Source: Saccostrea echinata (Eukaryota). From it: a stretch of 64,000 nt of DNA. Shown in pieces: positions 11,534 through 52,200 of this stretch. Position 1 is the first letter of the stretch, and each line of letters begins with the position of its first letter. The stretch spans positions 33,294,001-33,358,000 of the forward strand of contig NW_026889803.1 of assembly GCF_033153115.1 (NCBI RefSeq). Reading direction: 5' to 3'. Made by a program: the position numbers and the translations under genes. The notes below the pieces were generated by a model. That model saw only the letters and a program-made list of their open reading frames with translations. It did not search any database and was not told the DNA's origin.

Positions 11534-14500
11534 CTAACGCATCGTATCTGATTGGTGAGTTGAAGCAGCAACATTTCCGCCATTGTTTTCCCTCATTTTT
11601 ATTGTGTGCTCAATCAAAGAAATACACACAAAGACCCAGTTATACATATTCTGAGCAGGAATGGATCCAAATTTTCCAACTTCTCCATGCGGTACATCTG
11701 TATAAAAATATATAATGATAATAATTGTATGTTCTATTCTGATATTCAAAAGGTTAGTATGTTAACCATATCAAGGTTCTGAGACATTTAAGGAAATACA
11801 AAATATTTATTGCCATTTGATGATGCACAATTTCCCGTCCATGAAGTAGTTTTAAAAATGATGAAATGTATACAGTATAAGTAAAAGGCACCTTTTAAGA
11901 AGACTTCTAGTTTCTCTGGTGGGATGAGAGCATGGTCGCTGGCTGCTGTTGGGTCATACTCTGTTATCTTCTGTAGCAGTTCATTGTTGACATACTACAA
12001 TTAAATCTTTTACCATAACAAGACATTCAATAGAACAGGAAATAAAAGAATCATTAATTTCTGCAACTAACTCTTTCAAATCTAAATGTCTAAAAAATAA
12101 AAGTCGCTTCTTCCATAAAGAAAGTGATTCACAAGATATTGATCGAGGTTAGAAAAACTCTTTGGCAACTAGTGTATTTTTCAGTTCCATCATGATCAAA
12201 AGAAATCAGCATACAATGACTTACATTTCTTAGATTGGTCCAATCATCCACTTCTCCACTTTCCACCTGGTCCAAGTGGAAAATGGCCACCACAGCCTTG
12301 ACAATGTTCTGCACTATCTTAGGAGGCTCATTGTAGCTGCGTAATTCAGCAAAGGATTTGGCATCAATCTTGGAGACATTCTCTCTGAGTTCCATCAGCA
12401 TCAACCGGTCAAACATGATGTCCATCCTACTGTCATCATCCTTTTCTGCCTCTGTAATTATAAATCAATAAAGTAATTTCACCCGCTATACAGCTAACTA
12501 ATGTAAGTATCAACACATGGTTTTGAATTACCGTAAATGAACATGCATTGTAATCAAAAGTCTGAAGTACAAAATTTCCATTCATATTTCAAAGAAACAT
12601 TCTGATTTACAGATAAATTGATAAGATTTTGTAGGTTTATTTTAAGCAAAACAATTTTGAAGAAACAAGGGAGATAATTGTGCAATTACCTAGAACAACA
12701 GTTTTGTCCACTTCTCCTGAGAACTCCTTGGTGATCTCTTTGTGAGCCTGGTTCAGTAGTTTCAGCATTCTCTGAACCTCTCTGTTCTCATGTTCTGGTA
12801 GGTTCTTTAGCTCTCCTATACTGATGTCTACCACTGCCACTGCTCTCCCCTGGTCATCACGGAGAGGGAACGCTAGGTGCCGTTGTCCATAAGCATCTGC
12901 TGACACGGTTTCAGAGTTGTCCACACATTTGAACAAATAATCCCTAAACGTAACATGTAAGTTACAATAATTTTTTTTGTAAATTATAATATCATAACAC
13001 TAAAAAGGGAAGCAAGTTAAGAGAACTTATGCATGAAGCAAACATAAAATTGAGATTTTTGCAAAGTATTAACCACACTTAATGTTGCTGTCTAGTTTTC
13101 TCTTTGTAGACTATAAGCTGCATAATCATTTGAATATGTAAATTTTAAAAAGTTTCTAAGGAAGTTAAACCACAGAAAATTAGCTGCATATCCAAAGATT
13201 AAACAATGGCATCACCTTGACCCTTAACACCTTACCTAAACAGATTGTCTTTTCTCTCCAGCCTGGGGGGACTCAGAAGGTTCTGCACATTGCCTTTCTC
13301 GTCGGTGATCATCATCTTGCGGAGAATGTAGTCACCTTGGTCAGTACCTGGTTCCACCATGTACGTCACAATTTCCTGTACGTGGGGACTTCGACGATGG
13401 ATCCAGGACACAGCACTCTCGGTGATTCTCAGTAGTTTTTTCTTCATGTCTATGTTGTGGTATGAGATACTGAAAGATTTGGCCACTCCCTGGAGAACAT
13501 CAAATCAAGACAATTTTAATTTTTTTTGCAAAATATGTATCATCGTACTTAAGTTTGAAGGACAAAATATTATCTACTGAGTTATTCTGGTTTGATATAA
13601 ATCTCATCAATCTGAAATCAACAAGGCACATCCTGAAATGAGAATTTCTTAGTGAAAACATTATCTTAGGTATAGTTACACCCAGTAATTTTATGATGAC
13701 AAAGAATGTAAGTGGTGCTAAAATGAACCTTTTCCCAAAGCTTTTTCTCATATGCCATTAGCTTTTGTCAATAATCATACTATTAGTTATCATCCAACCT
13801 TCTCCAAATACATGTACATTTGTATTTAAAAAGAAAAGTTTCAGTAAGCCGTAGGAATTAATACTGTAAAATCACTTATTTTCGAGGGATAAAATTTTCA
13901 TGGTTTGAGGAACAAATATTGATTTGTGGGGATTTGATTTAGTGGTTGGTAGACAAATATAATACCAGTTTAAAAATTTTAACATTTTGTGGAGGACATG
14001 AATTCATTATACCATGAAAACAAAGAAAAATTAAACTTGCACAATAATAAGTGATTTCACAGTAATCCAATTTGAAATATATATTTAAAAAAAAAAGACT
14101 ACATATGTATACCTGGAAGAACTGGATTTCATGAGTGATGAAGATGGTTTTGGTGTGGTGGTCATTCATGGTGTCAATTCCAAGCAATCCAAACACTCTC
14201 TTCCTCTTGTCCTTTAATGGCACCACAATGAAGGACCCCTCCCTGTCCTGTTAAAATTCCACAAATGGTCAGAAAAAAATATTATGATGACTAAGAATGC
14301 AATATCCATGTCCCATGTATTTTTTTCAAATCAAGGAGTAGCATTTTTGGCTATTTATAAGATTTTGTATGACTTTACACAATTCTTTTTTTTTACCTCT
14401 GGAAGTCTGTAGGGGTTCCAGAACTGTATATTTCCATGGTTTGCCACTCTGGGGACATGGATTGGTTTACCACTCTCCACAGCAGCAAAACTACAGTAAA

Positions 14501-17500
14501 ACATGGCATATGAGAAATGAAACATAACATAACAGGTACAGGTTCACTAACTTAACATCAGTTTATACATAATCCTGACAAAACAAAGTAAGTTAATTTC
14601 TAGTACATACCTGATGCCTTTCATGTCTTTATACAATATTTTTCCTAAGAGGTAGTCAGCGTCCTCCATAGTGGCTGCCACGTAACGTAAGCAGACATTG
14701 CCTCTCTCTGGATCTGCTGTGTTTCTCTCCAGCATGGCAATGTTAGCACTGATTCTCTTCCCTCCACCATGGGCCTCAGCATCCTAGAAACAAATGCAAA
14801 TGTCTTATATTGTTTATGGTACGGATGCCCTCACTCAAAAAGATGAAGAATTACAGCATTATTCCAAAAATTATTTTTAAAAAAAATTAATGTTATTCAG
14901 AGAAAATACAGAATACTGGGTAATTCTGCCCCCATTTTATTTTATTTTCATGCCTGTCTTTAGTAGCTGAATTCATAATTACTGGTAAGCAAATTAAAAC
15001 AAAGGTATCTCCCTTTAACACAACTTTTAAAAATGGGCTTAAATCATTTACAGGTGTGATTTGGTGAAAAAAAAGGCAAAAATAACCCTATATGCAGTAC
15101 ATACATAATAGAGTGACTATTATATATAAAAGAACACTCCCACAAAGTTTTTCTCCCTTCAAATTTGAAATGAATATATTTGAATACTGTTCGTTATCTC
15201 GATATTTCATTGCATACCTTATACAGGGCATTGAATACAGCTCTGTACACTGGTTCCATGCTGGCTCCACCAGTTTCAGCTGCGGTCACTATCTGCTGAA
15301 GCCACTTCTTCCTGGCGTCACCACGGATCCTCTCGGCATATGAACGCTGTGGTGAATCAATTGATGTGAATAAGCAAATGCTTTATCATATACATTTACA
15401 CAGTTGGAAAACAGGTGAGTTAACACCTTTGAAAATTAAAAATGTTCTGTTTTGTCTAAATCTCCTTCAAAGTTTGGCTTTCCAATTTTTTTTGATAAAC
15501 AATCAATTAATTTCTAAAATCACAATCACAAATCACTACTAAAAATTAATTACATTTCTAAAAAACACAATCCTTAATAACTACTATAGGTAATTATTTC
15601 TAAAAAAAAAAAATGTTGCTCCAATACCTCTACACTGTTGACTAGGAATTCTACAAAATAATCGAAAGAATCTGCTCCCGGCATTTCATCCACCACCAGC
15701 TGTACAAAGGTGCGGAACTCTCTCTTACTCAGTCGGTTATCTGCATACTTAGACTGCTTCTTCAGGGTAGCCTTGGCTGAAATTTATAAAAAGTTGTTCA
15801 GATTTTACTGCTTGAAACTTATTCGAGTGTATTCAAATTGGAGCACAAAAGTAGGTCACACACCATTCACAAATTACATGTTAAATTAAAAAAGTTTACA
15901 TGTATGAAGTGTATAAACATATCAAAATAATGAGAGTGACCATGAATTAATGCATAAGTAGTACTTAATTAAGAATCTTTTGCAGTGGGTACTTTTTACT
16001 TACCCCTTTGTATGGCCTCTGTCTCTTGTCCCTCTTTGTACTTCTGCATCACAGTTTCCACGTCCTCCATGTCCAGATAGCCACACCCATCGTTGTCCCA
16101 CTTCTCAAACAAGGAGTCCATCATGTGCTTCCTCTGTGTGGACAATGCCTCCTTTCTGGCCTGTTAAAAGCAGAGAATTTTTGTCATAAACAGTAGCAAA
16201 ATCAGTCTGAATTAAAACAAATGTTAGTGATATTTGTGCACTTACAAAAATTATTAAAAATGGGACATATTCAAATGAAACCATTTCAACCAACTTACAG
16301 CAACTCTGATATAAATTTCACATTTGTTACATAACCCATATCTTTTCAAAATCTTGTCCCTATGTTATATCCAGGGCATTGAAAAAAATGATGGTACATC
16401 AAAGCTTATTCAGCATGTATTCAATATTCCTCAAAGTAAAGATCTTAAAGGTGCTTGGACACAGATTTGAAGTTAATATTTTCTCAAATTTTCTGTATAA
16501 TTTCATGACTTATATGTTGCTATAGCATTTCATACTAAAATATAATAAAAATCTTATTTCATCTCGAAGTTAATGAAACATCAAATTTCTGGATGCGTTT
16601 GATTGACACATCCTTGCACTTTCACAAATTTTAATTTTGTTCTTAATACTTAAGAAAAGTGGCAATGTTGTTGTGTATTAATAAAAAATATTAAAACTAT
16701 AATCCAAAAAATTCAGAGTAGATATGTTCGAAAGCAAAACCCACTCACAGTATTGTCAGTCCGTGCTCAGTGGTGTGTGCAGACTTTAACAATTGAACAC
16801 ACCCAGTGAATTGAAAACATTAACAATAACAGAGCTTGTGCCCTATTTACAAAAACAGTTTACGTTTCACGGGTGTATTCAATTTGTTAAACTCTGTACT
16901 CAACACTGAGCACGGGCTGACGATATTAGTGAGGGGGTTTGCTTTCGCACATTTCTACTCTGAATTTTCTGGATTATAGATGTAATGTTTTTCATTAATA
17001 CACAACAAAATCGCTTCTTTTCTTAAATATTAAGGATAAAGATAAAATTTGTGAAAGTGCAAGGATGTGTTAATCAAACGCGTCCAGGAATTCGTAGTTC
17101 AAATAATTTCCAGATAAAATAAGTTTTTAATTATGTTTTCGTGTGAAATGCTATTGAAATATATAAGTCATGATATTATACAGAAAATTTGAGAAAATAT
17201 TAACTTCAAATCTGTGTCCAAGCACCTTTAACTTTTGATGAAATAAAATGAAGCTATTTTGTTTTTATGTCACCTTCATCAGTCGCTCCATTTTCTCTTC
17301 CTCTGTTTCCTCGTAGCCATCTTTAACGTATTTGGTCAGCATGTCAAAAGCTTCTTTTGTGGGCTCATTACCCAGGAAGGTCTCAGTGAGGGTCACAAAC
17401 TGGGAGACATTCAGCGAGTTCTCGTCAAAGGCTGACTGTCCAGATCCCTTGCTCATTGTGGTCAATGCTGATAAAGGATTTAAAAAAATAATTGAATGAG

Positions 17501-20500
17501 GCTATACTTATGGATATTAAACCATTATTATTGTAGATAATTAATGGGACCCTTGTTTTTTGTTTGTTCGTTTCTGTTTGCTTTTTTATGAAATAGTGGG
17601 TAATTCTATCAAAGGGTGACAACTCTGCAAATGACCTGCTATATTTATCTTAAAAATTCAGTTGATTTTCTTTGCAAGTAACAAACAACATATTTTTTCT
17701 CTTTTCTTTGTTACCTTGCTTTAGATGTTTTAGAGCAGTAATTAAGGACTTTTACCTGTTTTCTCTCTATGAAAAGTTGTGCCAGCAGCAAATTTGACAT
17801 TGCCTTTTTCTTCCTCAGTAGCTGTAGTCACTGAAGATGGAGCTGCAGAGGTTTTAGTGGTATCCTTTCCTAGAAAACAATTTAAATATTTCTTTTTTTC
17901 AGTTTCTAGAAAGACTGCAGATATAGAAAATAGACAATTAAATACTAAGTCCATTAGATACATCTGTACAATCTTTGCCTTTGATTCATAATGAGACTCC
18001 AATTACATAAAGCAGCATTTCCAGACTATAATTTGTTACACTCTTGAGTATTATAGATCAAAGCAACTGAAAGTCACAGAACTGAACAAAAAGCATGCAA
18101 TGCAAAGAACAAAAAAAAATTACAAATGCTTCTGGGGAAACAAACCTCCATCTACTCCAACTGAGGAGGCCTCTTTCTCAGGTTTTGGAGGCTCTTCTTT
18201 TTGTTCTTTTTCCTCTGATTCAGCTTTGAGTTCTGACTTTTCAGGCTCTGGTTCAGCAGTTTCCTTCTTTTCCTCTGGTTTTTCCTCTGTAGGAGGAGGA
18301 GTAGCAGGCTTGGTCTCTGCTTTTTCCTCCTGTTTTGTTTCCTCTGATGGCTGTTCCTCTTTTGTCTCCTCTGTCTTGGCTTCCTCTGCTGGTTTTTCCT
18401 CTTTCTTTTCTTCTTCCCCTGATTTTCCTGCAGACTTATCTTCAGTTGTTACTGTTAATACTTCTACCTCTGGTTTTCCCGGTTCCTCTGGTTTAGGAGA
18501 AGGTGTTGGTTTTTCCTCAGCCTTTTCATCTGGCTCAGCACCAGGTGGTTCAGCTGTGTCTGGTTTCTGTTCTGGTTCAACCTCGGTTGTAATCGGTTTA
18601 CTTTCAGCAGTAGTGGCTGGGATTTCTATTTTGTCTTCACTAGTTTGTTCGGTTTCCTCTGGTTTTTCTGGTGCTGGTTCAGCTGGTGTAGGTGATATAG
18701 ATGCAGGAGTTGGTTCGGTAACTAATTGAAGCAGGTAACAAAACATGCAGGGAAATGTTTCAACTTTCAAAAAATGTGCCAATATATTAAAGCATCTCAG
18801 AGTAATGAACTTTTATATAAAAAAATATATATTTTTTAGATTTTGTTTCCTTCAATGTTTCTGACCATCTTGGTCAAAATATTTTAAAATGCAGTATTAA
18901 TTATATTTAAATCATTTAGGATCCTGTATTTGTTCATCACACCTCATTTGATGCTCTAACATAAAGCATTAAGTAATTCAATGTACACATTTGTGGGTTA
19001 TGGCAGTAAAAGATAAAATGAACAATGCAGATTTTACAAGCAAAGCAGGGTGATGGATTGAAGCCTCACCAAATACTGATTAAATAAATCACACAAGATA
19101 AAGCTCACAAATTATTTCTTCATGTCATTTCACAGATTTATTAAATAAGAAACATTATAAATCTCATGTTAAAATTTTATAACATTAAATCGAATTTGAT
19201 ATTTTTTTATGTATATTCAGGCCAAGTTTGCAACCCATTTTACATATAACTGCTACTTCCTGGAAAATCTACATATATATAATTATGAACAAGAAAATAA
19301 ATTAATCCAATGAAATAACAAACAAGAAATAACAATAAACTTTACAGACCTGTTGGAACAGTAGTGGTTTCTTCTTCATCATCAAAAATATCCTCAACTT
19401 CATCTACCTCTGCAACAGGCCCTAGAACAATAAAACCATTCAAATAAAATTTTTGTTACAGGACTTGAATCCATTTGTTGAACAAGGCCTTAGAAATGTC
19501 CTAGCACATCACTAGAAGAAATTCTGGTGAAAGACATACTTTCCCTTTGAATAAATAAATACTATAATAGTGTCTGCATGGAGAGTGAAAGGGTTGTTAG
19601 GGGCATATAAAGGATTACTCTATACCACAGAATAAACTTTCTATACAATAGAAAAAATATGTATATATACTGTAAATTTGTGTGTAAAACCCAAAGCACT
19701 CTGATTCAACAAACAAATTCAATGATAAACCTCTACTCAGACTTGTTTTATTACACATATGTTTCCTTAATGTATTACAGGTTTTTCTTGCTGATTTTTC
19801 TTCTGACTTACATCTGCGAGGGTTCCGAACATTTTTCTTAATGTCTTCTTTAATGGAATCCCAGAATGCCTCAAAAAGGCTAAGGATTCTGTGTCTGTCT
19901 AGCAATCCAATCTGAAGAACAAATTAAATATTGTTTTATTTTCAACTGTATTTAACATTCTAAAGAGAGAGAGAGAAAATTATAGGATAAAATTTCACTA
20001 CAGAGCTATCCCTAGGCCTTTGACTTACTCCACTGTGATCACACGTAATGAAGAGGTTCGTTAGCACAATTCTCCTTTGCTCTCTGTTAGCAGCAGCACG
20101 ATGAGACTCAGCACACAGAGACAAGTGCTGCATGAACTGCTCAAAGACCTCATAGCTGAAGTCGTCCACAAACATTGTCAGATACTGAAAAATCAAGAGT
20201 CTAACTTAAACCCTTCACAAGAAGAGTGGCTCAAAAAAATATATTTAGAAGAAATACTTCTGAAGAAAAATCAAATCTATTTTGTAAATGTGAGTGTTTA
20301 GTATAAACTGTTTTTAATACTGTCTACTTTTCCATTTTAATTTCCAAACCTTAGCGAATTCCTTGACAGACAATGCCTTTCCTGACTCATCGGTTGGTTC
20401 CAGAGCTCGACTGAGTTTAAATCCATCTTTCAAGTCTTCTGGGAAACTTTCTGCTATTTCAGCAAATGAACGTAGGGCATTTTGTACCTAAAAAATTTAA

Positions 20501-21885
20501 GAATAAAAATTAATAGATTATTCATATGTAAGTAAACAATATATATCGACAGTTTTCTATTGTTTGTGTCTCTCTTCTTCTTTACTGCTCTAAACAATTC
20601 TTTTAATGTTGTTTTGTGCATATATTCTAAACTTGAGATACTGGCCCAATGTTGTTGATGTAATGCCTTATATATGATTGTGCTTATTGATATTAGTTTG
20701 TTTTTTTTTAAAATGGAAGTTTAATTCAGTCAATTTTCAAAACAGTAAAATTGGTTTAAGACAACAAACCAAAGGATGGACTTTATATCTGAATAGACTG
20801 AAAGATTTTTTTCATTTTTTTCCCATCATAAAGTCTAATAATTTTGTTTATACCAGAGACAATTCTACTCTGCTGTCGGGCTGGACATGCCATTCCTGGA
20901 ACTGTTTCATAAACATGGCTTCTCTCCTATCTCTCTCTTCCTGTTTCACTCTCTCCAGACGATCTCTCTCTTCTCGACGTCGCTTGGCTTCAGCTTTTAT
21001 TCGTGCTAATCTGATTGTGTTATGATAAAACTCATTGATAATACCCATTGAAAAATTCTTGCACAACATTTTTAGTGACAAGCTGTACAATTTATAAGGT
21101 TTTAAATGATATTAGAAAAATATTAGTATAATTATAATATGATGTAGATACATTAACTCTCAGGGTTTTGGGGGCTTCTTTGTTTGTTTTTTGAATTGGT
21201 TTTGTTTTCGTTTTTTTAAATCATACTTACTAATAAATACACATTAAGTGTGAAATATAGAATCTGATGGTTAAATGATTTACACTGAATTATAACATTA
21301 CCTATTATCTTCAATGTTAAAGAGCTGTTTCTTTAGCTCCTCAGAAACTTCTCTAATTCCTCTTACATAGGGTGAAGCCTCTGAGAAGTTACTATATTTA
21401 GGGTTGTTTCTCATCATGTGTTGTGCTAAGAAATTAATTGGGTTAAAGTCTGGATCTTCCATGTTCTCGTCAGTCAAGCCACGTTTATCAGCTTCTGATA
21501 ATAACTTTTCAACTCCAAGGATCAGAGTTGGTAAAACTTTGTCAACCATGTATGTTCTTACTTCTAATGTAGCCTCATTGTCATTTAACCAATCTCTTGC
21601 AAGAATCTCAATGGGGATTTTGCGAGCCAGTTTCTTGGCATTTTCTTTCGAGCTTTTAACTTGCTGTTTTTTGTCATTACGCATTCCAACTAATTTTTCC
21701 ATCATGCTTTGTTCATGCATTCGTTTCCATCGCCTAACAGCACTTCTGACAATGGGGCGAGAGTAATCTGTGGGGGATTTCTTTCCACTCCCTGGTGCTG
21801 ATCTCTGTCCCGTGGATCCAGCACTACGCGGGGCAGCCATGGTTACCCGTTTGGTAGGGCTTCCTGGTTTCTGAACATCAGCCAT
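11534..21885 (-). CDS. EFCAB5: EF-hand calcium-binding domain-containing protein 5-like (~1309 aa), 20 coding exons: 21885-21302, 21010-20854, 20487-20350, 20184-20029, 19911-19812, 19421-19350, 18721-18146, 17869-17756, 17467-17274, 16160-16004, 15776-15628, 15346-15218, 14783-14611, 14490-14397, 14247-14113, 13489-13236, 12943-12690, 12451-12225, 11994-11892, 11697-11534
   Basis: [18 protein letters not shown]...[16 protein letters not shown] (Dpy-30/RIIa-like); EF-hand [14 protein letters not shown]; GAF-like [18 protein letters not shown] and [17 protein letters not shown]; C-terminal [11 protein letters not shown]. All phases close (3930 nt). Confidence 0.88.
13862..14064. mobile_element. 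Tc1/mariner-type MITE (~200 bp, TA-flanked)
   Basis: tactgtaaaatcacttatt ... aataagtgatttcacagta. Confidence 0.7.
16449..17227. mobile_element. 779-bp fold-back element with TTAA TSD (Kolobok-like, AGG...CCT termini)
   Basis: ttaa|aggtgcttggacacagatttgaagttaatattttctcaaattttctgtataa ... ttatacagaaaatttgagaaaatattaacttcaaatctgtgtccaagcacct|ttaa. The arms pair almost to the centre (~16840). Confidence 0.88.
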
Positions 21886-22087
21886 TTCTATCAGGCAATG
21901 AAAATGTATACAAATCAATGCAAAGATTTTTTTAACTGCAATAAATTTATAAGACACGTTTTGTATGGCCATATACTGATATATTTGTGTTAAGCACCAA
22001 CAGGTAAATCGGCAAGTGCTTGACTTCTGATGATTTTAATGTATCTACATATTTGCAGATTCTTGAACAATAAGAAAGGTTACCAAC

Positions 22088-31200: not shown

Positions 31201-34200
31201 GCATGCTGATTAGCCCTTTTGTTTATTTAATGTATACTCAAAGGTGTGAATTCACGGCAGGAAATTACTTCTCGCTTGAACGCACACAGCCACCTGGTCA
31301 GGTAACATGCCTCAGGCTGTTGGGGTATAGGAGATAACATGAGAAAAATATCATTTGATTGCATTGAATATGCAAGAATTAGCCCAATGTCTAAGATATA
31401 TGAACTTGTGAATTAAATTAATTAAGACAGAATCGTTTTTTTTAAAACTGAAAGTAGGAAAAAACCATAGTTGATGGTGAAAAGTGTAAAACAGTCTGCT
31501 CATTTAATCTGAATAAACTCAACTTGTATTGCACCAAAACTGAATATTATATGAGAAATGGGCTTGGAAAAAACAAAGTATGAAGTGAATTTCTTTGAAT
31601 GATGTTTTGTTCTTTAAGAGTTGACACCCTGAGGGTCAATTAAAAGCATTTAACAAGATTTGCTTCATTAAAGTTTTAAATTTTTTTTTGTTTAGATCAA
31701 AATTTTCACATGATAATATTGATAGATTATTTTCCAAATAAAGAAATTGCCAATAACAATTATTTTCTAAGTAACCCCCCCCCCCCCCCCCGAATTTTTT
31801 TTTGTTTTTTGCATGTCATACTCCAATAACACTATTCCAAACAGGAAAAAATCCTGGGATGCCTCCAACTGATAATTCTTGGTGCATGCAATAGCTAGAT
31901 TCACACCTATAATAGTTTTTAAAATAACCTAATATCTAATTCCTTGTGTAAAAAATTAAATGCATATTTTTTAATTGTCATGTCAGTGTGTGAATTGTAT
32001 TATGTTGTTTTTTCTTTTTTAAAAATGAATAATTGAAAACAGATTTATAAATTTCATTACCTTTTAATTACTTGTATACAATGTAAATAAAGATTTTAGT
32101 ATAATAATAATCAAAGTACATAAAGTAAAAGTTTATAATTGCAAAGGCACGTTAAAGAGTGCCCCCATGAAAACTTGTCGCAGAATAAAGTGCCCTTTTG
32201 ATTTTTGGATTACCATGCCCTTTTTAGGGTCTAGATTTAACACTAAAGAAAGTGAAAACATACAACTGAGGGTGTTTTTTTGACACATTTAGAACAAGTA
32301 CTTATTGTAGAAGGAAGGAAACAGGTCATTCCAAGGGAAGTTGGTCCTTATCCAGTTATGATATTCAGGACAAGTTCTCTATCTCGCTCTGCATAAAATT
32401 CATCTCAGTGCTTGGTATTCTCTTTCCTTTCCCCCCCCCCCCCCCCCCCTATTTCTTTCCATGGACTTCATCTCTTAAGTCGGTTCTGTAAATTGAGTAT
32501 ATGCCACATTGTCTAATATGAACAAATTACAAGATTATCATTCTGTGGGAGTTTTCACTCTATTTCTTTTTGTCTTGACCATATTTTCTCATCAGATACT
32601 CTCCTAATGAACAGTTTGAACTATTTTTTAAAGTATGAAATTGGTCAAGATCTTGGTAAAGCATTTTGGATATTTCAGAAATGTTAAGCACGGTTGTATT
32701 AGTTCTTAACTTGTAAACAAGGATTAAACACATAGCCTGTCAGTCATACAACCCCTACTAGGACATGCAGTGAATGACAAGATCTCTGTTCATCTTATTC
32801 ATGTAAAAATCTCTACATACAAAAAAAAGTAAATGTACCAGAAGGAATTAGTCAAAGCGAATAATGAACTTGCATCTCCTTATTGGATAAACACAGCCTG
32901 GAACCAGACATCTTTTCCTATTATATACTCTTGATATTTGTAACATTATCGTCTGAAAACAATTACATGAAAAAATAAAGAAAAGGGAATTTTTTCATCA
33001 CAAGACACATGCCCCCAGGGGTGATACCGGTAATTTTCATTTATTTATTTAAAAATTCAAGGTCATGAAGTTGCTTATTTTGTGAAATTTTCATTTCTTG
33101 AAATTTTCTGCTTATTGAAGCAGCAATATTTACCAAATACCCCCCTCCCCTCAAAAAATGATGGAGAAGTGTTTTGGTAATGACCAATTATACATTTTTA
33201 CAGCCGGATGACTTTGGTAGTTGAAACGGAAAGGTAAGAGATGGATCATAATCCATCAGGATTTACCTCATTTCGATATTGTTTTATTTTTATATCTGTA
33301 TGCCCTCAGCATGACCTGTTCTTTGTACTGTATTTTGCCGTCTTTATTAATAACGTAACTCTTCCAGGACCAAGACAGCTGCTAAGAGACTCAAGAAATT
33401 TTTCCATACGGTCCGATTCATTTCCAAATTGAGGCCGTGAGTTTCGTCTCTCTCTTTCTCATGCATGCACATGTCTCTTTCCTGTTTGCTAGCTATATAT
33501 AGTCGTTTATATTCCTTTTATGCAGTGTGTATAGAATCAATTGACATATAATGCTTTTGATATGGTGTTTTTGATGTGTTTATCTTGCAGTGTGTGTCAT
33601 TTGTATCAATTTAAATATAACGCTACATTAACAGCATGTTATCAGGGTATGAAGACTCAAGATAGATCTTTCAAGATTGACAATGCTCATTGAATGATTG
33701 TAAAGTAAAAAAAAAAAATAACAAACAATTTTTAATACTTAGGGGGTGTTCAGTTAGAAATATATGAGGCGCCGTTTTGGTATTTACTGCCAAAAAGTGA
33801 TATCACCTATTCGAATAGGTGATATCACCTATTCAATTGGTGATATCACCTATTCGAATAAGTGATATCACCTATTCAGCTTCTGAATAGGTGATATCAC
33901 CTATTTGAATAGGTGATATCACCTATTCGAATAAGTGATATCACCTATTCGAATAGGTGATATCACCTATTCAATTTGAATGAGTGATATCACCTATTCG
34001 AATAGGTGATATCACCTATTCGAATAGGTGATATCACTTATTCGAATAGGTGATATCACTTATTCGAATAGGTGATATCACTTATTCCTTTTGAATAGGT
34101 GATATCACTTATTCGAATAGGTGATATCACCTATTCAAATCAAATAGGTGATATCACCTATTCGAATAGGTGATATCACTTATTCGAATAGGTGATATCA

Positions 34201-40200: not shown

Positions 40201-43200
40201 ACCACACATATTTTTTTTATTTGGCCTAATAATATTCCATACATGATTGAGCTGTCACCTGATGAACCTTTAATTCTTTTCTATTTTTTATATGCTTTAT
40301 ATGTATATGAATTATAAGAGTAAATGTAAGTCCAAAAACTTATTTTGTGACATCAATTTCATACCTGTATTTGAGTTGCCTTTTTGAGGATATACCAGGT
40401 AGATTATTCAAAGTCGATGTACATGTAGTCTTACATGCTGCAGTTCTCTTGTACTTTAGCTATAAAATAAATTTTAATGTATACAATTGTGTAAGATGAA
40501 AGAATATTTCAAACACTGAAACAGACTGAAACCTTAACAGACCAAAACTTTAACCAAAATATCCTCTATAACATGCTCTCTGAACTGAAGAGTATGGTCA
40601 TATAATTATTGCAGTCATATGAATTTTGTTCAATGATAAATGCAGAGAGAATTTGCAGAATATATAAAGAAAGTCTTATCGTTGGGAAATAAGCAGGTCC
40701 AGTACAATCTCTTAATTTAGCTATATAGCTTGAAATTATAGCTATATAGCTTTATTAAGCTATTCAAAATAGCTTAATTTAGCTATTTATATGCAGTTTT
40801 TCACAAAAATTATTTTGGTAAGAAATAGACAAAAAGTCGCATGTATTTGACCATTCATATATGTGCTATGGGCTATCGAAACAACAAGCAAAATCAAAGA
40901 TATCTCCAACTTTGCAACTTTTGAATACTTTTAAGCAAAAGATAAATTTCTATTATTTGAGTAACTGTCCACTACCTTGTGTGCATTGAGGCATGGATAA
41001 GTATGATTGCTTCTCATTGTACTGAATTATTACCAATCAATTATCTTCTTGACCATAATTGGCCTCCTTTATAATTTCATTGAAGAAGTAACTGTATCAA
41101 TTGCGCATGTAGCCTAAAAACTTTTAGAACTTTGAGTACAAAGTCTCTTTTGTTTCTATTTTCCTAATTATCTCCCCTTGTTTAAGGGTCACAACCCTAG
41201 TTTTAGTATAAATGGAAGCCCTTGGCCCAAGGATACCCTGTGACAAATTTGACAATAATTGGCCAAAGGGTTCTTGAGTTATGGCCCATATTCTAAAAAT
41301 TTTACGCACACCGCACAAATGGCCATAGCATTAGCTCTTTGGGCCTTTGGCTCAGAAGAGCTAAAAATGAACCTCTTGCATTGAATTTTGGTTGATATTT
41401 TTTACTGTTTTTTTATGAACAATGTACAGTATTTTCACCCAAATTCCAGTATTTTGAGGACTGCTGTACAGTATTTGGGCCTAAAAATTATTACATGAAT
41501 GCAAGGAGATTTTAATGAGTGAGTTTTATAATGCATCAATTTCAGATGAGTTCAAGGTTGAGTATCATCACTGCACCAAGGTGCGACTTTTTGTGCATGC
41601 TGAGAAAAGTACACATTTAAGAAAAACTGATATAAAATAGCTAAATTAAGCTATTCTGAATATAGTTAGAATAATCTAACTGTGTCTCGGGACAAGCCCT
41701 CACCACAGTTAGAATACCTCCCATATACTTGCAATGTAGCAAATCAGAGTGGATCCACTCCGAAATGATTTTGAAGAATACAAAAGGAGTTGCATTGAAA
41801 ATAACTACCAAATTAATCATAACAAACATTTTTGAGATTGTATATGCCTTTTAACCTACAAATAAATCCATATATATACGAAAATTCAACTCATTTTCTC
41901 AACGTTTTTTCCTCGCTTCAAATTTAACGCCATGTTGACATTCGGAACTCTCTGGATTCTTCATACAAAATGCAGAGAATTCGAGTTATTGCCCGTGTTT
42001 ATTTTGCTACATTGCGAATACACAGAACAAATTCTATCGTTAAACCGGGTCCATAGGACAATATCATTTTAACGATAGAACGTTCTATCTATTCTGAATA
42101 GCTTAATAAAGCTATATAGCTAAATCAAAAGATTGTACTGGACCTGATAAGTGCTTTCAAACATTGAATACTTATAAAACTAGACCCACTGACATGCAAC
42201 AGCTTAATTTCTGTTGATAAATGAAGCGTATTCTGAACAAATTATTTACCCAAACAAAGGTGATGCTGTCACAAGATGACGTTCGTACCCATCTGACACT
42301 TACACTACTCCTCCTTAATCAGCTGGTAATAACATCATTATCCTCGAATTCAAGAAAAATCTGTTAATAAATTAGTTGTAATGATGATAACAAAACTATT
42401 CTAATCAGATACAAATGTATAATATAAGACTTCTATTTCACCAAAGAATACCCAAGAAACAGGTGACATTCTCTGACTTGTTTACCTGTACTTCGATCGA
42501 AATTCTCCTCCTACTTGCTCGCACCCAAGCTTTTATGACACTCAATTTATCCATCGTAAGTCAGAGAACCCTTCGGCTTTGTACAACTGCTTAAACTTTC
42601 CTTATACGCTTTGTGTAAACCATAAACATGCATAACCCAATACACATCTTGCATCTCCATGTGTGAGGTACCCGGAAGTTAATATTATCGAAAAATCTCG
42701 CGAGTCACGTGACGAGACTTACAGACCCTAATGCAGCCCGAATTTGCTTGGTTCCAATGAAAATGTAGATAATCTTGAGGAAGGGAGCATTCATTATTTA
42801 TTGTTGTAAAAAATGCAAATAGGTGATATCACTTATTCGAATTGGTGATATCACCTATTCAAATTGAATAGGTGATATCACTTATTCGAATAGGTGATAT
42901 CACTTATTCGAATAGGTGATATCACCTATTCAGCACGAATAGGTGATATCACCTATTCGAATAGGTGATATCACCTATTCATTTCGAATAGGTGATATCA
43001 CCTATTCGAATAAGTGATATCACCTATTCGAATAAGTGATATCACCAATTCGAATAAGTGATATCACCTATTCGAATAGGTGATATCACCTATTCAATTT
43101 GAATAGGTGATATCACTTATTCGAATAGGTGATATCACCTATTCGAATAGGTGATATCACCTATTTGAATAGGTGATATCACTTTTTGGCAGTAAATACC

Positions 43201-46200
43201 AAAACGGCGCCTCATAGAAATACATACATGTATGCATAATTTTCATTTCATTGATCATGATTTAGATTATCAATAGAGAATGTTCAGTGAATGCTAAATA
43301 GCATGGAGATATTTGTTGTAGATGATATTGATAAAAAGAATAGTGTTACTAATGGAATTTCTTGCATGAAAGACTGCTCCCTTAGGAGAAAGAATTCAAA
43401 CTGAATTTCCCATCATACTAAAAATAATACATGACAATCTTCATGTACATGTAGCAAAGTCATAGCATGATCGTCATTTATAATCTGTATAGTATCTGAG
43501 GTACATAAAAACAGACATCTAGATGTATTGGCTATGTTGATGAAGTCTGGACGTAAGATAAACCACAAATTAGTTCAAATTTTTATACCTGATAAATTAG
43601 CTGCATTAGAACGAACTTGATAAGAAAGACAGGTAATACACAACATTGTACATATATATATCCATGTCATAATTTTTTTTACGTTATCAAATTTGGGGTG
43701 TGGGAAAAATGTTCCTTTCTGAGCTTAAGCACATGGCACTTAAATACTTTGACAAAAGCAGTCAAGGTTTTTAAATCTAAGTGCAAATACATAAGCTAGA
43801 TAGTGCCAAAAATTACATTCTTGTATATACCTTATTTTTGACAAAAAGAAATTGCCTCTTTTTTGTCAAAGCTAGAACTAAGTGGCACAGATCTAAAAAA
43901 AAAAAAAAAAAAAAAAAAAAATTCTCATAATGCTTTGTACACTTTTTCTGTAATCTAATCATGTCTTGCTATAATTAAACAATATATTCTATTCTGGTAT
44001 TTATATATATGATTATTACCTATATACCATTATTATAAGGGTGATGGGACAAATACTCTACAGGATCATGATCTAATATTAAAGGTAGAAATAAGTTTGT
44101 GCATTCTTTTGTTCAATGACTGTTACAATTATCATATACTTGAAAACAAATTAAAAAGTCTCTGTGTCTATCTGAGAGAGAAAAAAATCAATAAATCTGA
44201 CGCATTATTCATTACTCTGTATTATATCACATGAAGTCTGATTCACTTTTCTGTCAAGTTTTTATAATTATTTTCTTTATGTATGATGTTTAAATACTTG
44301 CTTACCTCATAATAACTTTTTTCTTCATTTTCTAGTTTTAGTGAGAGTTACTTTACAGTCAAAGGGGCGGCACTAATTCTGCCACAGAATGAACAAGAGT
44401 CAGGATATGCTTCCAAGCGGATAACAAAGAACTGCGACAGTAAGACTTAAAATTGTATTAAAAATCTTAATTATAGTAATTTTTTTCCTTCTTGACATTT
44501 TAATTAAAGTCACAGGTTTCTTTCATGAAAAAAAGTAGAGACTTGGTTTGATATTACTGTTCAAAATAAATGTCATTAAACTAGCTGATACAATGAATGC
44601 ATGGGAAATCTAAAAATTTAAGATTTGTTGATATAGAATTATAATTTGTTTGAATATAAAATAGCACTTCTTTTGAGCTGAAATAGACAAACTTGAATAT
44701 CTACATGTATGTTGCAAATATATGTACCATGATTAAAAAATATATAGATAAATTTATTTTCCAATTATGAGAGCTCTAGGTAAATCTTGAGGGTGTAGAC
44801 CTCTTGTTTTCTACACAATATCATATTGTCAGTGTTGACACAATGATAATTATCACTAATTAACACATGTTTGATTACAGACGAGATACAGAGTCATCTG
44901 CAGTCGATGTTTTACCTGTTAAGACCACAGGACACAATAAAAATAGTGAGTGTTGATTTCACCATAAGTCTGTCACCTTAGATGTTCAGCTGGCACCGTC
45001 TGTTACATTATAGTGGGTGTAGTCTAGGGCATTGAAACCTTGTCATATTTTTCATAAACGCTAGGCACTTTTACTAACCATACATTTTGTGTGCTTGTGC
45101 AAGTAAACAAGTTATACATGTATTTTCATAATGAATATATGCATTTTCAAAAAGAGTGAACAATTAATATGTATTTCAAGATATTACAGTATGTCATCCA
45201 TTTAATGATTTGGTGAATGGCTTTGACAACATGAAATATGTTTGGATTAATTATAATTTTAAATGTTTGTAACATAGATTATTCATTTTACAGATACATG
45301 TTAAAAAAAGATAAAGTGACTGTGTAATATTGTTGAAGTCAAATCTAGCGTATTTATTTCTTAACATAGATTTATAGTACCGGTACTTACTCCTTTGGTC
45401 TCACCTAACTGATGAAGCTTGAAAATAAAGTATATGTAATTAATTAATTCATCAGGACCAAGTAGCTAATAGCTAGAAATTGAATATCCTAATCACATTG
45501 TAGGCTGTGAGACTGGAAACTACGAATCCCACTGGTAACCCACGGTACATGGCGGTGGTGTCATGTGTGGGTCGCCAGGACGAGGAGGAGTCGGTGATAT
45601 TGGGGATTGACTGTCAGGAGAAAGCCACCATAGGGCTGGTATACCCCATCTTCTCTGACACCTCCATCAAACTCGATGGCGATGGGTAGGTTTACTGACT
45701 TTGGTCCTTTGTATTTTCGCTTTTATTTTCACATTTTTTCAACTCATTATCACATTTAATTCTCATGTGTCAGCTGGTACTTGTTCACATTATTATTAAC
45801 ATTGTATTACATATTGGGTTAACATAAGTCTTTTGGTATAAAAATTGGAACACAGTGTGCATACAAATCAAAGGGGACAGATAAACTTGTTTTTGGGGAG
45901 AGGATACTTCTTTTTTTTTATACTTAAGTGCCAGCTACATCAATGTCATCTATAAATGCGGTTAATGTCAGGACATATATTTAATGTGTTAATGTCAGTA
46001 CATTTATTTGATGTGATTTTCTTCTTTTCCTTTATAGTGGTTTTATTGTGTCCTCAGATGGCAAGCTACATGTCTTCAAACCGGTGTCTGTGCAGGCCAT
46101 GTGGTAAGAAACTCGTACTGTACACAGAATAGGTAGAGTGTACAGGCAATGTGGTAAGAAACTCGTACTGTACACAGAATAGGTAGAGTGTACAGGCCAT

Positions 46201-49200
46201 GTGGTAAGAAACTCGTACTGTACACAGAATAGGTAGAGTGTACAGGCAATGTGGTAAATAAACTTATACTATACCCAGAATAGGTAGAATCTGTATAGGC
46301 CCCATAGTAATAAACTCATACTCAACAAATAATAGTAAGAGTGTTCAGGCAATGTGGTAAGAAACTTGATTGTACACAGAATAGGTAGAAAAAAGTTACT
46401 TAATATTCATTTCACAACAGAAGGAGAATTTTGTAGCTGAACTCTTTAGATAAATTTATTAAAGTTAAAACCTGAATGTTTGATATTCTTCGTTATCAGT
46501 CTTTAGATTTTGCAATGTACACATGCAGTTATCATGAAAATGACATAAATGCAGGGTTTTGATGGTTTCAGGTCAGCTTTACAGAGTCTCAATAAGATTG
46601 TTAAAATGGCTCGTGACAATCGCCACATTCCTGCAGGCTTGTCACATACTTGGACAGGGTATTATGAATCTTCTAGTCTAAGATCCAGTCTCACCCAAAT
46701 CACAGAATGGTGAGATTTCGTTGATTTTTGCATTCATTCAACTTTTTATTTACTTTTCAATTGACAACATTTTTATATGTAAAGGATATTAACTTCATTT
46801 TTTCCAGCTTTTTATCTATTATTTGAAGTGTTCTCAAATCTATGTAAATTTCTAGAATGGGCTACCTGTACAGAAATGTCACATTTTTGTGATAAAATAC
46901 ATCCAAACAAACACTTTTTGTACTTTTAAGAACGATGTTAGATCAGATAGATGGCATATGTATTTCTTTCATGTCCTTTCAGGCACACTAATGAAGATGT
47001 AGAGTTTTTCAAGTCAATGCCAGTTTTTGTTGAAACTGATGAGTAAGTATTCCATAAATACATATACGGTAAATTTCATTTTTTTCTATTATCATAGATG
47101 AAAATCTTGTAAAAGGTTCAAGAAATATGTATTTTCTCCACAATTTTTCAGCTGATCTGAGTTTGATATGTGTAATCTACATGCATGTGTATATCTGTAA
47201 CATTCTGTGATTTTAGTGAGGAGTCACAGTTTAAGAAGAGACTGAATGTAGAGCTGAAGAATGTCATGATGAGAATGGATCTAGAGGAAGCTACATGTAA
47301 AGAGGTGAGTGTAATTAGTACAAATAATTAGTATGCATAATGAAAGTACATGAGTCACAGAGGCAAGACACACAAATCACTTCAGATGTAAACCTTGCAC
47401 TACTTAAAAACTAAAGTGCTTCTAACAATACTTAGGTACGTATATTAAGTATTTATCATTGAGTTTTATGGAGTAGTTTGCAATAATTGAAAGCAAGAAG
47501 ATAAAGAGTTTCACAGAAAATAAATTTTTAAAAATGTTTATCCCAGATACGTCAAGAGCTTGAGGAAGCTATGGGGACGGATTTATCGGAGTACAAGAGT
47601 TATGTTGACCAGGAAATGATGAGGATTTTGGGACAGATGGACTCGCCAACTAAAATTGAGGACTACCTCTACCTCGGTTCAGAGTGGAATGCTTCCAACA
47701 TGGAAGAACTCCACAACAATGGGTAAATTTTACTGGTATTTTAAAGGTGTTACACTGCCTTAATGAAGCCATGATAATCATGTCACAGGAAGTCAAGTTT
47801 AGTAAGATTTCCAGACAAAAAATGGTTGAATTCTCACCTGTGAAGATTACACACTGAAGAAAGAGATTTTTTGTCATCTATAGATAAGTGGAATGTAGTT
47901 CTTGATAAATATAATGTTAAATTCATTTTTGAAATAGATTATAATGAAATATTTATAAAAAAATTCATTAAAGAAATTCATATATTGGATAAAAATCATA
48001 GAGAATCTCTTCTCTGTGCAAAACATGCATGAAAAGGAAACAGAATTCTGTACACATATGTATATAAAAGCCAGTCTATTTAACAGCACTTTCTCTGTGT
48101 TTTAGTGTGGGACACATTCTAAATGTAAGCAGAGAGATTGACAACTTTTTCCCTGGATGTTTCGTGTACCAGAACATCCGTGAATGGGATTCTGAAGAAA
48201 CGGACCTCATGAAGCACTGGGACAAAACATTTATGTTCATCAAGGAGGCTAGGTAAATCATGCTTGACAATTTATATATTTACCCCTGCAACAATGTTGT
48301 TGGGGGGTTGAACTGGAATCACAGTGTGCACCTGTCTTTTTATTTGTTTTGAACTCTGGTTAATAACAGTGTTTTGGTTGATTCCAAGCTTATCAATTTT
48401 GATTTCTATAACAAATTTGCATACATGGGAGAATGCCCCCATGGGAGGGGAAATATAAATCCTAGTCAGCAGTTCTAGTTCTTAATAAGTGTGACAGTAC
48501 ACACACTTTTTTGAAATACACATGTATATATTTCTTTGCTTATTATAAAGACCATGTACATCTGTATAGAGAATATACAGGTTAAGTTTTCCTTAGAAAG
48601 AAAGTATCTTTTCCAGGAATCGAAATTCAAAAGTTTTAGTCCATTGCAAGATGGGGATCAGCAGATCTGCATCTACTGTAAGTTTCAGTATAACTTCCCA
48701 GACAATTTTACTACTTTTATATTATTAGCACTGTCAAAGTTGATTTCACCATTAAGTTATGAAGAATAGAGCTTGTATATTCAGCCTTAACTTGTTCATA
48801 CTTAGGTGATGGCGTACCTTATGAAGGAGCATAGGATGTCGAGACAGGAAGCGTATGATTACGTAAAGGAGAAACGTAGCTGTATAATGCCAAACTCCGC
48901 CTTCTGGAAACAGCTGGAAACTTACGAAGGCATACTGCAAGCCAAGTAAGTTGTTATGTTTACAGTTACTTTTTAATGGCATTAATATTTGAAAAATCAT
49001 ATCAGTGCAATTTTAAAACAAGCACACAAGGTATGGCAAAACAGACTGAAGACAACAGTAAAATTACATTAGGTGTAACTTTTATTCAGAGCAAAGATTT
49101 ATGAAAAAGAGGTTGTGAAATAACTGGGGGTATGTATACTAAGGTATATCTCCACATTTTGGCTGTCTGGATATTGTGTTGATATTTGTTGATGATAATA

Positions 49201-52200
49201 ATAATTAAGGTACTTTTACTCCCCTTAATCTTTCCTTGACACTTAATGCACCAATTCCTTTTGTATTTTATTTTGGGAAAATTTCAACAAATAAATCCTA
49301 TTTGTTGTATGATGTCATTTGTAAACCTGTTTTATAATTTGATTTCAGCCTTCATTTTGCCAAATGGAGCATTTTGTTTCACATATAATTGATTAGTCTC
49401 AGGCTGACACTTTTTTTTTGTTCCTATACCCAATGCATCAACATAAATGTGAAAATTTTTTAAATCAGATCACCATATCTTTAATTTAGAGCATAGTGTT
49501 TCACAATACACCTCTTGATTTAATCCAATGAAATTGTTTTTAGAAATCTTTTCAAAATATAAATTTCCTTTGGCTTCATAGCATACAAGTATTTTAAGGG
49601 GATTTGAATATGAAGCCCCATAATATTTTTGATTTACAGTGTATTTTTTTTTTATTTTGATAAATGTTGATATAATAAATACTTGTATCTATTGAATAAA
49701 AAAAAAAATAAATAAAGTAAAAATTTAAAGCCTACCTTGAGTGTTTTGAGAAAAAAATATTGAAAATGATTTTTAAATGTAAACATATATATACCCATGA
49801 TTAATTTTGAAAAATTGTAGGAGAAAACTTGAGCTGTTTAAAAGCAAGTCCCAACAAGACTTACTGGATGCTTCCATGGAGGAAGATGATGTGGGCTTCA
49901 ACAGACATCATCATCATCACCTCTTCACGGAGACTGACATGACCAGGTGTCATAGTATGCCAGGTGGCCTGGATAATTCTGTATTTTATCATCCTGGTAC
50001 GTGTACTGTTCAGTGCTGTATTACAATTATAGCCGGTCAGTTGGTTCAGTCCTCAGCCAGTTGGTAAACCAATGGTTTCCAACCAATATCTTAGGAATTA
50101 GCTTGGCAGTACATGTAATCTAATTTTGGAAACATGTTGGCCATGTAAGAAGATGACTTCTATGGATTTACTGAATTATCCAATAAGGTCAAAGGTTGCA
50201 TGGATTTTGACTTAACCACATTAATATATTTCCTTCAGTATCTTGAGAACAATGAAATTAAACAATATTATGTATACGTCTAGTATATACATACATGTAA
50301 ATGGATTAGACAATGGGCAAAGTTGCTTCTTTAAGTCCTTTTCATATGAAAACCATTTGATAATCTTAAAGCTCAGTTCATAGTTGTCAAGGAACTTTTT
50401 GTTTCATAGTTGTCAAACTTCATCTTTAGTTTTTTTTTCTACTGTGCTTGCCGTATGTTTGTACATTTTTGTCACTATTCTTGATACATCTTTGTCACAA
50501 TTCTTGACAACAGTAGTTTGTGAATTACACTCCTATTCACAGATTATGAACCATGCCACATGGAACCAGATATGGAGGCTGAATCCAGAAGTGCTGACTC
50601 AGCAGAAGACTCCCTGTCTGATCATCCCTCCCCCAAACCTGAAGAAGAGGAAGCCTCAAAGAAAGATCTGGCCTACTACATAGGGGAGGAAGATGATGGT
50701 CACCAGTCGGAAGGCATGGAAGAGATAGATTGGAACAAGCCAATGTCATCTTCACTGCCAACATTCAAAATTATTAAGCCAGATGAGAGCTGGATAAGGG
50801 GAGAAGCTGAGAAAGAAGAAGAAAGTGAAGAGAAGAAGTCTGATGTGGAAGTGAAGGTCATTGCTGCTGATAATGGAGAAATGTCAAAACAGAGTCCAGA
50901 GGAGGAAGAGAAAGTGTCCAAATCCGATGATAGTGCTATGGAAACTAACAGTCCCTTTGTTCATTTGAAAGAAAACATTCCCTGGAATCCAGGGACTGTG
51001 AAAAAGACAAAAGAAAACATTGAAGGCAAAAAGACTGAACCTTTGGTAGGAGGAGAGAGCTTCATTCCTGATCAGATAATTGTGATAAAGGGTGCAGAGA
51101 ATGTTGGTGCAAAACCGGATCTGAAGCTGGATCTGGCTGGAGTTACAGTGTCAGAGAGCTCGGATTATGGTAGGGACACATGCACTCCTACATCAGAGAG
51201 TAGCAGAAATTCCGGATCTGTGTATGAAAAAGAGGAAATTCCTTTGGCACCTGGAACTGTAAAAAGAACTCTCAAGGAAATAGAGGAAAAGCATGGGTAG
51301 AGTATTTCTTTTTATGCCACCAGAACATTTATGTTTTGTATCTCATGCTAATTTGCTTATTCCAAAGTTACAGAGTAAATCAAGAGACTTATATTTTAGA
51401 TATTCTTTAGGTTGTAGTCTACATGAAGTGTATTTGGTTAATGTGCATTTTTTTCTTTTTTTTTGTGAAATAGGTTTTTGAGAAATAAGGACCTACCTCC
51501 ACTTCCACTTCAGAGATCAGAAAGTTTAAAGAGTCCCAGAGACAAGGTGAGACGTCGGCGTATGGACCGTGAACGTCGTAAGACCTGTAACCCAGTCCTA
51601 GTCAGTTCCCCCAGAAGTCCTGAGGAGGAGGTGGATTTTGAATGGAGGAGACACAGTACAGGGGAAACGTTCTCTTCCAAGCCTGGTACAGAGGAGAAAT
51701 CACCAGAAACCAAACAAGCTGTGTACAAACTGATGGGGGAAGAAATTACTGTAGAAAAGGGCATTGTGAGGAAGCAGAGAGAAGGTAAATATAAGGGAGG
51801 GCATCCTACACAGTCAGAAAACAAGTGAATAAATTTTTAATATGAGTTTAAGGTGGGGGTGGTATTTAAGTTCAATTTAGCATATAGGAATCCATTGACT
51901 GATTTTCTTGCATAGTGATATTTCATAGTTACTCAAATACTGGATAAGACTAAATGATATGTATGCTAGCAGACACTGTTCATGGCATATTTACAGGAAA
52001 ATTATATTTTATGAAACTTAAAATACATGTATAATCTATATGTACATCCATTTTTATACCCCACACAACTAGTTGCGGGGGGTATAATGTTTTTGACCCG
52101 TCAGTCAGTCAGTCAGTCAGTCAGTCCGTCATGCCTGTTTTTTTGTCAGCGCAACTCCTCCTAAACTGCTGCACAGAATTTCATCAAACTTTGCAGATAT

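Follow-up and report, generated by a model that had tools for sequence, protein, structure and literature searches.

In Muta1, a type 2 foldback MULE of Aedes aegypti, all differences between the two arms lie in the linkers, and a larger number of repeats brings more transposase binding and more excision (PMC5499845, represented here, like the other papers cited, by extracts). The tandem repeats of Galileo contain secondary transposase sites and bind the THAP domain (PMC3688188). IS3EU/GingerRoot elements have TA..TA ends and usually generate 6-bp duplications (PMC10045372, PMC6839031); the extract of a further account calls both their structure and their function largely unexplored (PMC11934779). 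The present analysis concerns two arrays of a self-complementary repeat in Saccostrea echinata, located in a stretch of 64,000 nucleotides (assembly GCF_033153115.1, contig NW_026889803.1, positions 33,294,001 to 33,358,000), referred to below as the window. A 9,454-bp element (33763-43216) lies in an intron of a slingshot (SSH) phosphatase gene, and its terminal inverted repeats (TIRs) consist mostly of these arrays. The favored interpretation, with a probability of about two in three, is that this element is a single, likely non-autonomous cut-and-paste transposon with IS3EU/GingerRoot-like ends, whose repeated cores likely offer a series of sites to a transposase supplied in trans. That the arrays are transposon ends is nearly certain; that the repeated cores serve in binding is probable by analogy with the described systems, and the IS3EU/GingerRoot affinity, read from the ends alone, is moderately likely.

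Arrays and ends of the element

The original prediction described about 20 and about 16 tiled units, and 20 were found at 33791-34256 (left) and 16 at 42817-43188 (right). It also described the unit as a perfect 22-bp palindrome, which is true of the consensus but of only 11 of the 36 units as they stand (five left, six right). An alternative register separates an invariant part, the 10-bp palindromic core GTGATATCAC, from a variable 12-bp palindromic linker, CTATTCGAATAG, with which it alternates. The core is exact in all 36 copies (no mismatch in 360 bp), whereas the linker has 28 substitutions in 420 bp; all substitutions and all length changes in the arrays are confined to the 12-mer. The predicted spacers (eight 5-mers and one 7-mer) are all present, each at the center of a linker, and divide the arrays into runs of two to five units, as had been stated. 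The junction at 33834, which is 1 nt short, had gone unmentioned. This pattern is far beyond chance: the two arrays gave TRF scores of 559 and 480, the folding z-score was -37 against 100 shuffles, and the core 10-mer occurs only once more in the window. An array of the CRISPR type had been dismissed from the outset, and correctly so: the spacers are of 0, 5, or 7 nt, the setting is an animal intron, and a search of the arrays against Rfam returned no match, whereas a CRISPR array has unique spacers of ~25-45 nt between all repeats, together with cas genes.

Left units 5-20 are mirrored without gaps by the right array (inverted match, 381 nt, 90% complementary), and the left arm has four units more. 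Both arms have the block layout 4, 5, 2, 3, 2, for which chance placement gives 1 in 1,365. When the arms were compared with each other, spacer letters differed at 11 of 20 positions and unit letters at 24 of 352; against the consensus, the corresponding figures were 10 of 40 and 28 of 770. P values for this divergence are overstated, since the copies are not independent.

Outside each array, 34 bp are identical and inverted on the two sides, which places the first core of either arm 34 bp from its tip; the identity extends 50 bp from the tips. The element begins with TATGAGG at 33763 and finishes with CCTCATA at 43216, giving TA..TA termini. GAAATA lies directly outside both ends (the chance of a 6-bp match is ~5e-4), and we infer that the pair is a target-site duplication. 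An 8-bp duplication (TAGAAATA) was considered and rejected, as the element's ends would then differ by two bases; read symmetrically, the duplication is 6 bp. Farther inside, a decayed inverted repeat of 54-64 bp gave a local alignment score of 43, which was reached by none of 300 shuffles (best shuffle, 32). Loose contig ends in sequencing runs X1 and X10 resemble, by eye, the right and left inner edges, which suggests that both edges belong to the element family. Motifs in the right copy are presumably ETS-, BANP-, and E-box-like.

Contigs from four of 15 sequencing runs (X1, X6, X10, and X12) were compared with positions 32600-33834, which comprise flank, tip, and two units. Loose ends starting exactly at 33763 were found in 73 of 1,671 contigs of X10, 51 of 698 of X12, two of X1, and one of X6; most of the aligned X10 and X12 contigs span units only. 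Flank agreement outside the tip was low (0.37 in X10 and 0.39 in X12). Because the X10 and X12 flanks disagree at this point, the tip, as judged from the contigs, bounds a dispersed family that occurs in at least three organisms. Summed depth is consistent with hundreds of tips in X10 and X12, a figure that is not a copy number. The ratio of unit to tip summed depth is ~7 in both, no higher than expected from 16-20 units per end, and so gives no indication of free arrays in large excess, as in a separate satellite. Spacers of 5 nt (AATTT, AAATT, GAATT, CTTTT) recur in X10 and X12, in the consensus of their loose ends and joints. The tips, the duplication, and the dispersed tip boundary uphold the view that the arrays are part of TIRs; for their alternative interpretation as independent minisatellites, the relevant observations are that both arrays here begin 34 bp from a tip and that the depth ratio is ~7.

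A scan of metagenome contigs with the tip 18-mer gave 11 loci. Ten were dismissed as chance, since beyond the pattern only 5-10 of 32 letters agree, and L007 alone was retained. In L007, the tip is followed by 16 bp with 7 of 16 letters alike and then by a core plus linker with 20 of 21 letters alike, at the 34-bp offset seen here; it has one core and no array. The contig appears to be animal DNA. On the evidence of this one contig, the ancestral end may have been a tip plus one core, and the spacing of the two may matter. L007 also has a small element (541-876), apparently inserted directly behind the first core and flanked by GAATAA and GAATAG; its inverted ends are ~17 bp long, and it contains palindrome-like tandem repeats of 10 bp. 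Viral contigs contained neither the tip 18-mer nor the array pattern, and the array pattern was likewise absent from the metagenome contigs and the prokaryote genome contigs. The tip plus core pattern gave no match in genome contigs, and one viral-contig match to it (L012) was a chance hit.

Spacer length, core conservation, and competing explanations

The original prediction described spacers of nearly constant length and varying sequence. The letters do diverge, as the comparison between arms showed, but selection on length is unsupported, because one length change in nine spacers fits the neutral expectation: the orthologous intron in X10 has 19 gaps per 86 substitutions, which predicts ~2.2 spacer length changes where one is seen (P ~0.35). 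The eight 5-nt spacers lie 0, 2, 1, 1, 0, 2, 4, and 0 changes from AATTT/AAATT, only one of them more than two changes away, and an insert of this kind leaves the linker palindromic. Descent from one AATTT/AAATT spacer would suffice to explain the constant length. Phasing of the units at half a turn by 5-bp spacers is likewise unsupported. The phase resultant is 0.28-0.42 at 10.4-10.6 bp per turn, 6-8-nt spacers would give 0.59-0.86, and the block lengths of 49, 71, 93, and 115 bp have no common phase; helical phasing was rejected on these grounds. What stands of the predicted protein-binding arrays is binding itself, which is plausible given the invariant core and the fixed distance from the tip.

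It is accordingly very improbable that spacer length was selected at about half a helical turn, with blocks of dimer sites alternating between faces in an ordered nucleoprotein complex. Eight of nine spacers being 5 nt long while their letters vary, the 5-nt spacers in the X10 and X12 loose-end consensus, and the 16-bp tip-core distance kept in L007 would all fit such selection, but the neutral expectation, the poor phase resultant, and the existence of the 7-nt spacer and the 1-nt deletion argue against it. A foldback-type IS3EU/GingerRoot lineage in which the transposase or a second protein sits as a dimer on the 10-bp palindrome, rock oysters have multiplied one ancestral site into ordered arrays, 22-bp steps stay on one helix face, 27-bp steps flip to the other, and the arrays form a length-selected scaffold for pairing of the ends across long cargo is an improbable reading; if it were true, the first end-recognition site would have been pinned down for the superfamily.

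An explanation that leaves the transposon ends intact treats the arrays as neutral: a single required core near the tip would have been amplified by slippage and fold-back owing to its doubly palindromic form, with the extra copies idle. This is unlikely, and several observations agree with it: L007 has the tip and a single core, the left arm is four units longer than the right, unselected descent accounts for the spacer lengths, the units are poorly phased, and self-complementary tandem DNA folds very strongly, which would favor template switching. Against it, decay has touched linkers and spacers but none of the 36 cores, Muta1 is sensitive to the number of its repeats, and in Galileo the THAP domain is bound by the tandem repeats (extracts of PMC5499845 and PMC3688188). 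The shared block layout also argues against it, although common origin of the arms would explain the layout as well. The arrays contain only seven distinct types of substitution, all in the linker (P ~0.014); this is moderate evidence that the core is constrained, and homogenization among copies could contribute.

Assignment of the ends to another superfamily (hAT6, or a TA-targeting group with TGAGG ends), or to two separate ends that flank host DNA through composite transposition, is distinctly unlikely. hAT6 too makes 6-bp duplications (extract of PMC12730594), and nested repeats make a patchwork of the interior, in which no gene was found. Even so, TA..TA ends together with a 6-bp duplication agree with the description of IS3EU/GingerRoot, the inner inverted-repeat remnants pair across both sides, and the X1 and X10 loose ends noted above resemble the inner edges by eye. 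Service of the arrays to the host, as cruciforms or long double-stranded RNA in the SSH pre-mRNA that regulate the gene, is scarcely credible. Cruciform extrusion and double-stranded RNA in the pre-mRNA are physically possible as modeled, the arrays lie inside a spliced intron, and each folds into a near-perfect hairpin; however, they belong to a dispersed mobile family, have no Rfam match, and show no tie to the SSH gene, and the flanking exons are joined in an X1 contig.

Several points weigh against the favored interpretation of an IS3EU/GingerRoot-like transposon with repeated binding sites. The 6-bp duplication is known from one locus only, for which no empty site was seen, and a TA duplication with TGAGG ends would yield the same loose-end boundary at 33763. 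Fungal IS3EU ends read TAYGG in the extract available, compared with TATGA here. No transposase or remnant was detected inside the element, nor could its ends be tied to an autonomous partner. Invariance of the core can also stem from homogenization among copies, and some X10 copies have changes inside the core.

On the favored interpretation, the ancestral end would have consisted of the tip and one core plus linker, as in L007, and the 22-bp core-plus-linker unit would have been amplified by slippage or unequal exchange. One linker would have gained a 5-nt insert (AATTT or AAATT) that was then copied along, its constant length being inherited. A transposase supplied in trans would bind the 10-bp cores, and additional cores would increase transposase loading and excision, as in Muta1. 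The element would have inserted into the SSH intron, later acquired its nested insertions, and been removed with the intron at splicing. The candidate binding site is the 10-bp palindrome 34 bp from the tip, which is conserved in a distant contig.

Interior of the element and its genomic setting

Coordinates of the element, its parts, and the nested insertions are collected in Table 1.

Table 1. Features of the transposon-like element and its host intron (window coordinates)
Feature	Positions	Strand	Basis
SSH phosphatase gene intron, 10,899 bp	33437..44335	+	tblastn of protein P0001; exon-joining contig of X1
Left GAAATA, inferred target-site duplication copy	33757..33762	+	sequence
Left TIR tip, 18 bp, TA first	33763..33780	+	sharp boundary in other contigs; identical in L007, itself retrieved with the tip 18-mer
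16-bp segment from tip to first core; equal length in L007, 7/16 letters alike	33781..33796	+	alignment
Left array: 20 core copies, 12-bp linkers; four 5-nt inserts, one 7-nt insert, one linker 1 nt short	33797..34256		sequence
Decayed inner inverted-repeat remnant, pairs with 42666-42729 on the opposite strand	34466..34519	+	local alignment
Nested hairpin (MITE-like) insertion	35776..35926		self-BLAST, 76% inverted match
Nested insertion bounded by GGCCAAA TIRs, flanks TTAA/TAA	37666..40226		self-BLAST and sequence
Nested element with CAGG..CCTG ends and 5-bp duplication ATAAG	40694..42146		self-BLAST and sequence
Right inner inverted-repeat remnant with promoter-like motifs	42666..42729	-	local alignment; motifs in the sequence
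Right array: 16 core copies, four 5-nt inserts; mirrors left units 5-20	42817..43182		inverted-repeat match and sequence
Right 16-bp segment and 18-bp tip, same as left over first 50 bp	43183..43216	-	alignment
Right GAAATA copy	43217..43222	+	sequence

The interior contains at least three nested insertions. The one with GGCCAAA TIRs, which we take to be Kolobok-like, includes ~150-bp tandem repeats at 38534-39111; a 500-bp repeat, 75% alike and inverted, is shared between 39506-40020 inside this insertion and 31067-31569 outside the element. The insertion with CAGG..CCTG ends would be hAT5-like by duplication length only, and it has a subterminal AGCTA-rich repeat (40760-40841 and 41582-41662) with a third, internal copy. 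The search of the element interior for a transposase gave no candidate: the Pfam cut-off was reached by none of 87 open reading frames (ORFs) and none of 15 read-through frames. Two word-based protein searches and a phmmer search of 1.84 billion proteins, the latter with one of three frames, were blank over the part of the interior that they covered, and a search of the ESM atlas returned nothing (best score 0.86). Exon-like pieces with AG/GT borders are present on the minus strand (42660-42250, 40430-40340, 37010-36800, and 36640-36320), with promoter-like motifs upstream at 42672-42712. They are possibly a decayed gene or a non-coding transcript of the element; a decayed minus-strand gene was tried and is unproven, as codon scores were not above the intron control and no homologue was found.

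The exons of SSH map on either side of the element and none within it (tblastn), and the exon at 53781-55196 is identical to an NCBI protein from Saccostrea echinata. A contig of X1, a run that is RNA by guess, joins the exon at 33365-33436 to letters at 44336. Without the element and one copy of the duplication, the host intron would measure 1,439 bp. Considered as a possible empty orthologous site, record 10 of X10 tracks the intron to 33697 and continues with 383 letters that include no tip piece among the pieces listed. The small runs X1-X5 (RNA by guess) contain 35-42% of words sampled from this intronic 10-kb stretch. Neighboring host ORFs occur at 2384-5207, 9667-10074, 12129-22035, 58700-59122, and 61051-63878, and by eye, from their translations, they were taken for one gene that resembles tubulin, a short one at 9667, one with several exons that lies head-to-head with SSH, and one that is BTB-like. 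Elsewhere in the window are hairpin-like elements at 7351-8041 (690 bp), 16445-17231 (790 bp), and 59257-59343 (87 bp), the first and last with ~45-bp ends in common, and tandem arrays of 168 bp (at 27100-28775), 180 bp (52142-53155), ~150 bp (825-1760), 50 bp (46089-46389), and 60 bp (77-448).

Comparison with described transposons

The repeat is not described in the extracts of papers on the oyster satellitome and bivalve transposons (PMC8268682, PMC10294476), nor is the family in the titles and abstract openings of the literature searched; Repbase and Dfam lay outside that search and may already contain it. The core 10-mer turned up in 28 papers, all of them unrelated by title. The 6-bp duplication, taken by itself, is also a feature of Polintons (Mavericks) in the extracts available, and a Pfam search found no polymerase, integrase, or capsid genes in the element. 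Polintons share long TIRs with the element, in which the AG..CT termini of Polintons are absent.

Galileo, a Foldback-like element of Drosophila, has internally repetitive TIRs of ~0.5 kb, of which only the outer ~40 bp are kept between species, and in these respects resembles the element. It differs in being a member of the P superfamily whose transposase is of the THAP type, and the word "palindrome" does not occur in the paper (PMC3688188). The likeness to Muta1 extends to a terminal motif followed by subterminal tandem repeats with short linkers, to arms that differ in their linkers, and to non-autonomous derivatives with unequal repeat numbers at the two ends (PMC5499845). Muta1, however, has 8-9-bp duplications, a 145-bp TIR, and nine 12-bp repeats (same extract), whereas the element has a 6-bp duplication, TA..TA ends, 16-20 self-complementary units, and spacers at some junctions only. 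The element thus lacks the 8-9-bp duplication of MULEs while showing the features of a type 2 foldback element, namely dispersed copies and long TIRs in which a terminal motif is followed by tandem repeats in subterminal position.

IS3EU/GingerRoot elements share both the TA..TA termini and the 6-bp duplication. The size of the element falls within the 3.9-12.9 kb range of GingerRoot, and related sequences are known from Crassostrea gigas, according to the extracts. GingerRoot TIRs are given there as 100-150 bp, with no palindromic tandem arrays described, and the element has no detected integrase-like transposase. Because no transposase was found inside, the element is graded IS3EU-like and is not assigned as a member. 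Collectively, the anatomy is explained by known foldback architecture; the novelty lies in the doubly palindromic unit and in the probable superfamily. The arrays mark a repeat family of high copy number and strong self-complementarity in the genomes of rock oysters and imply no new kind of system; if the IS3EU/GingerRoot assignment holds, foldback ends built of tandem sites, which have experimental backing in MULEs and P elements, would extend to a further superfamily.

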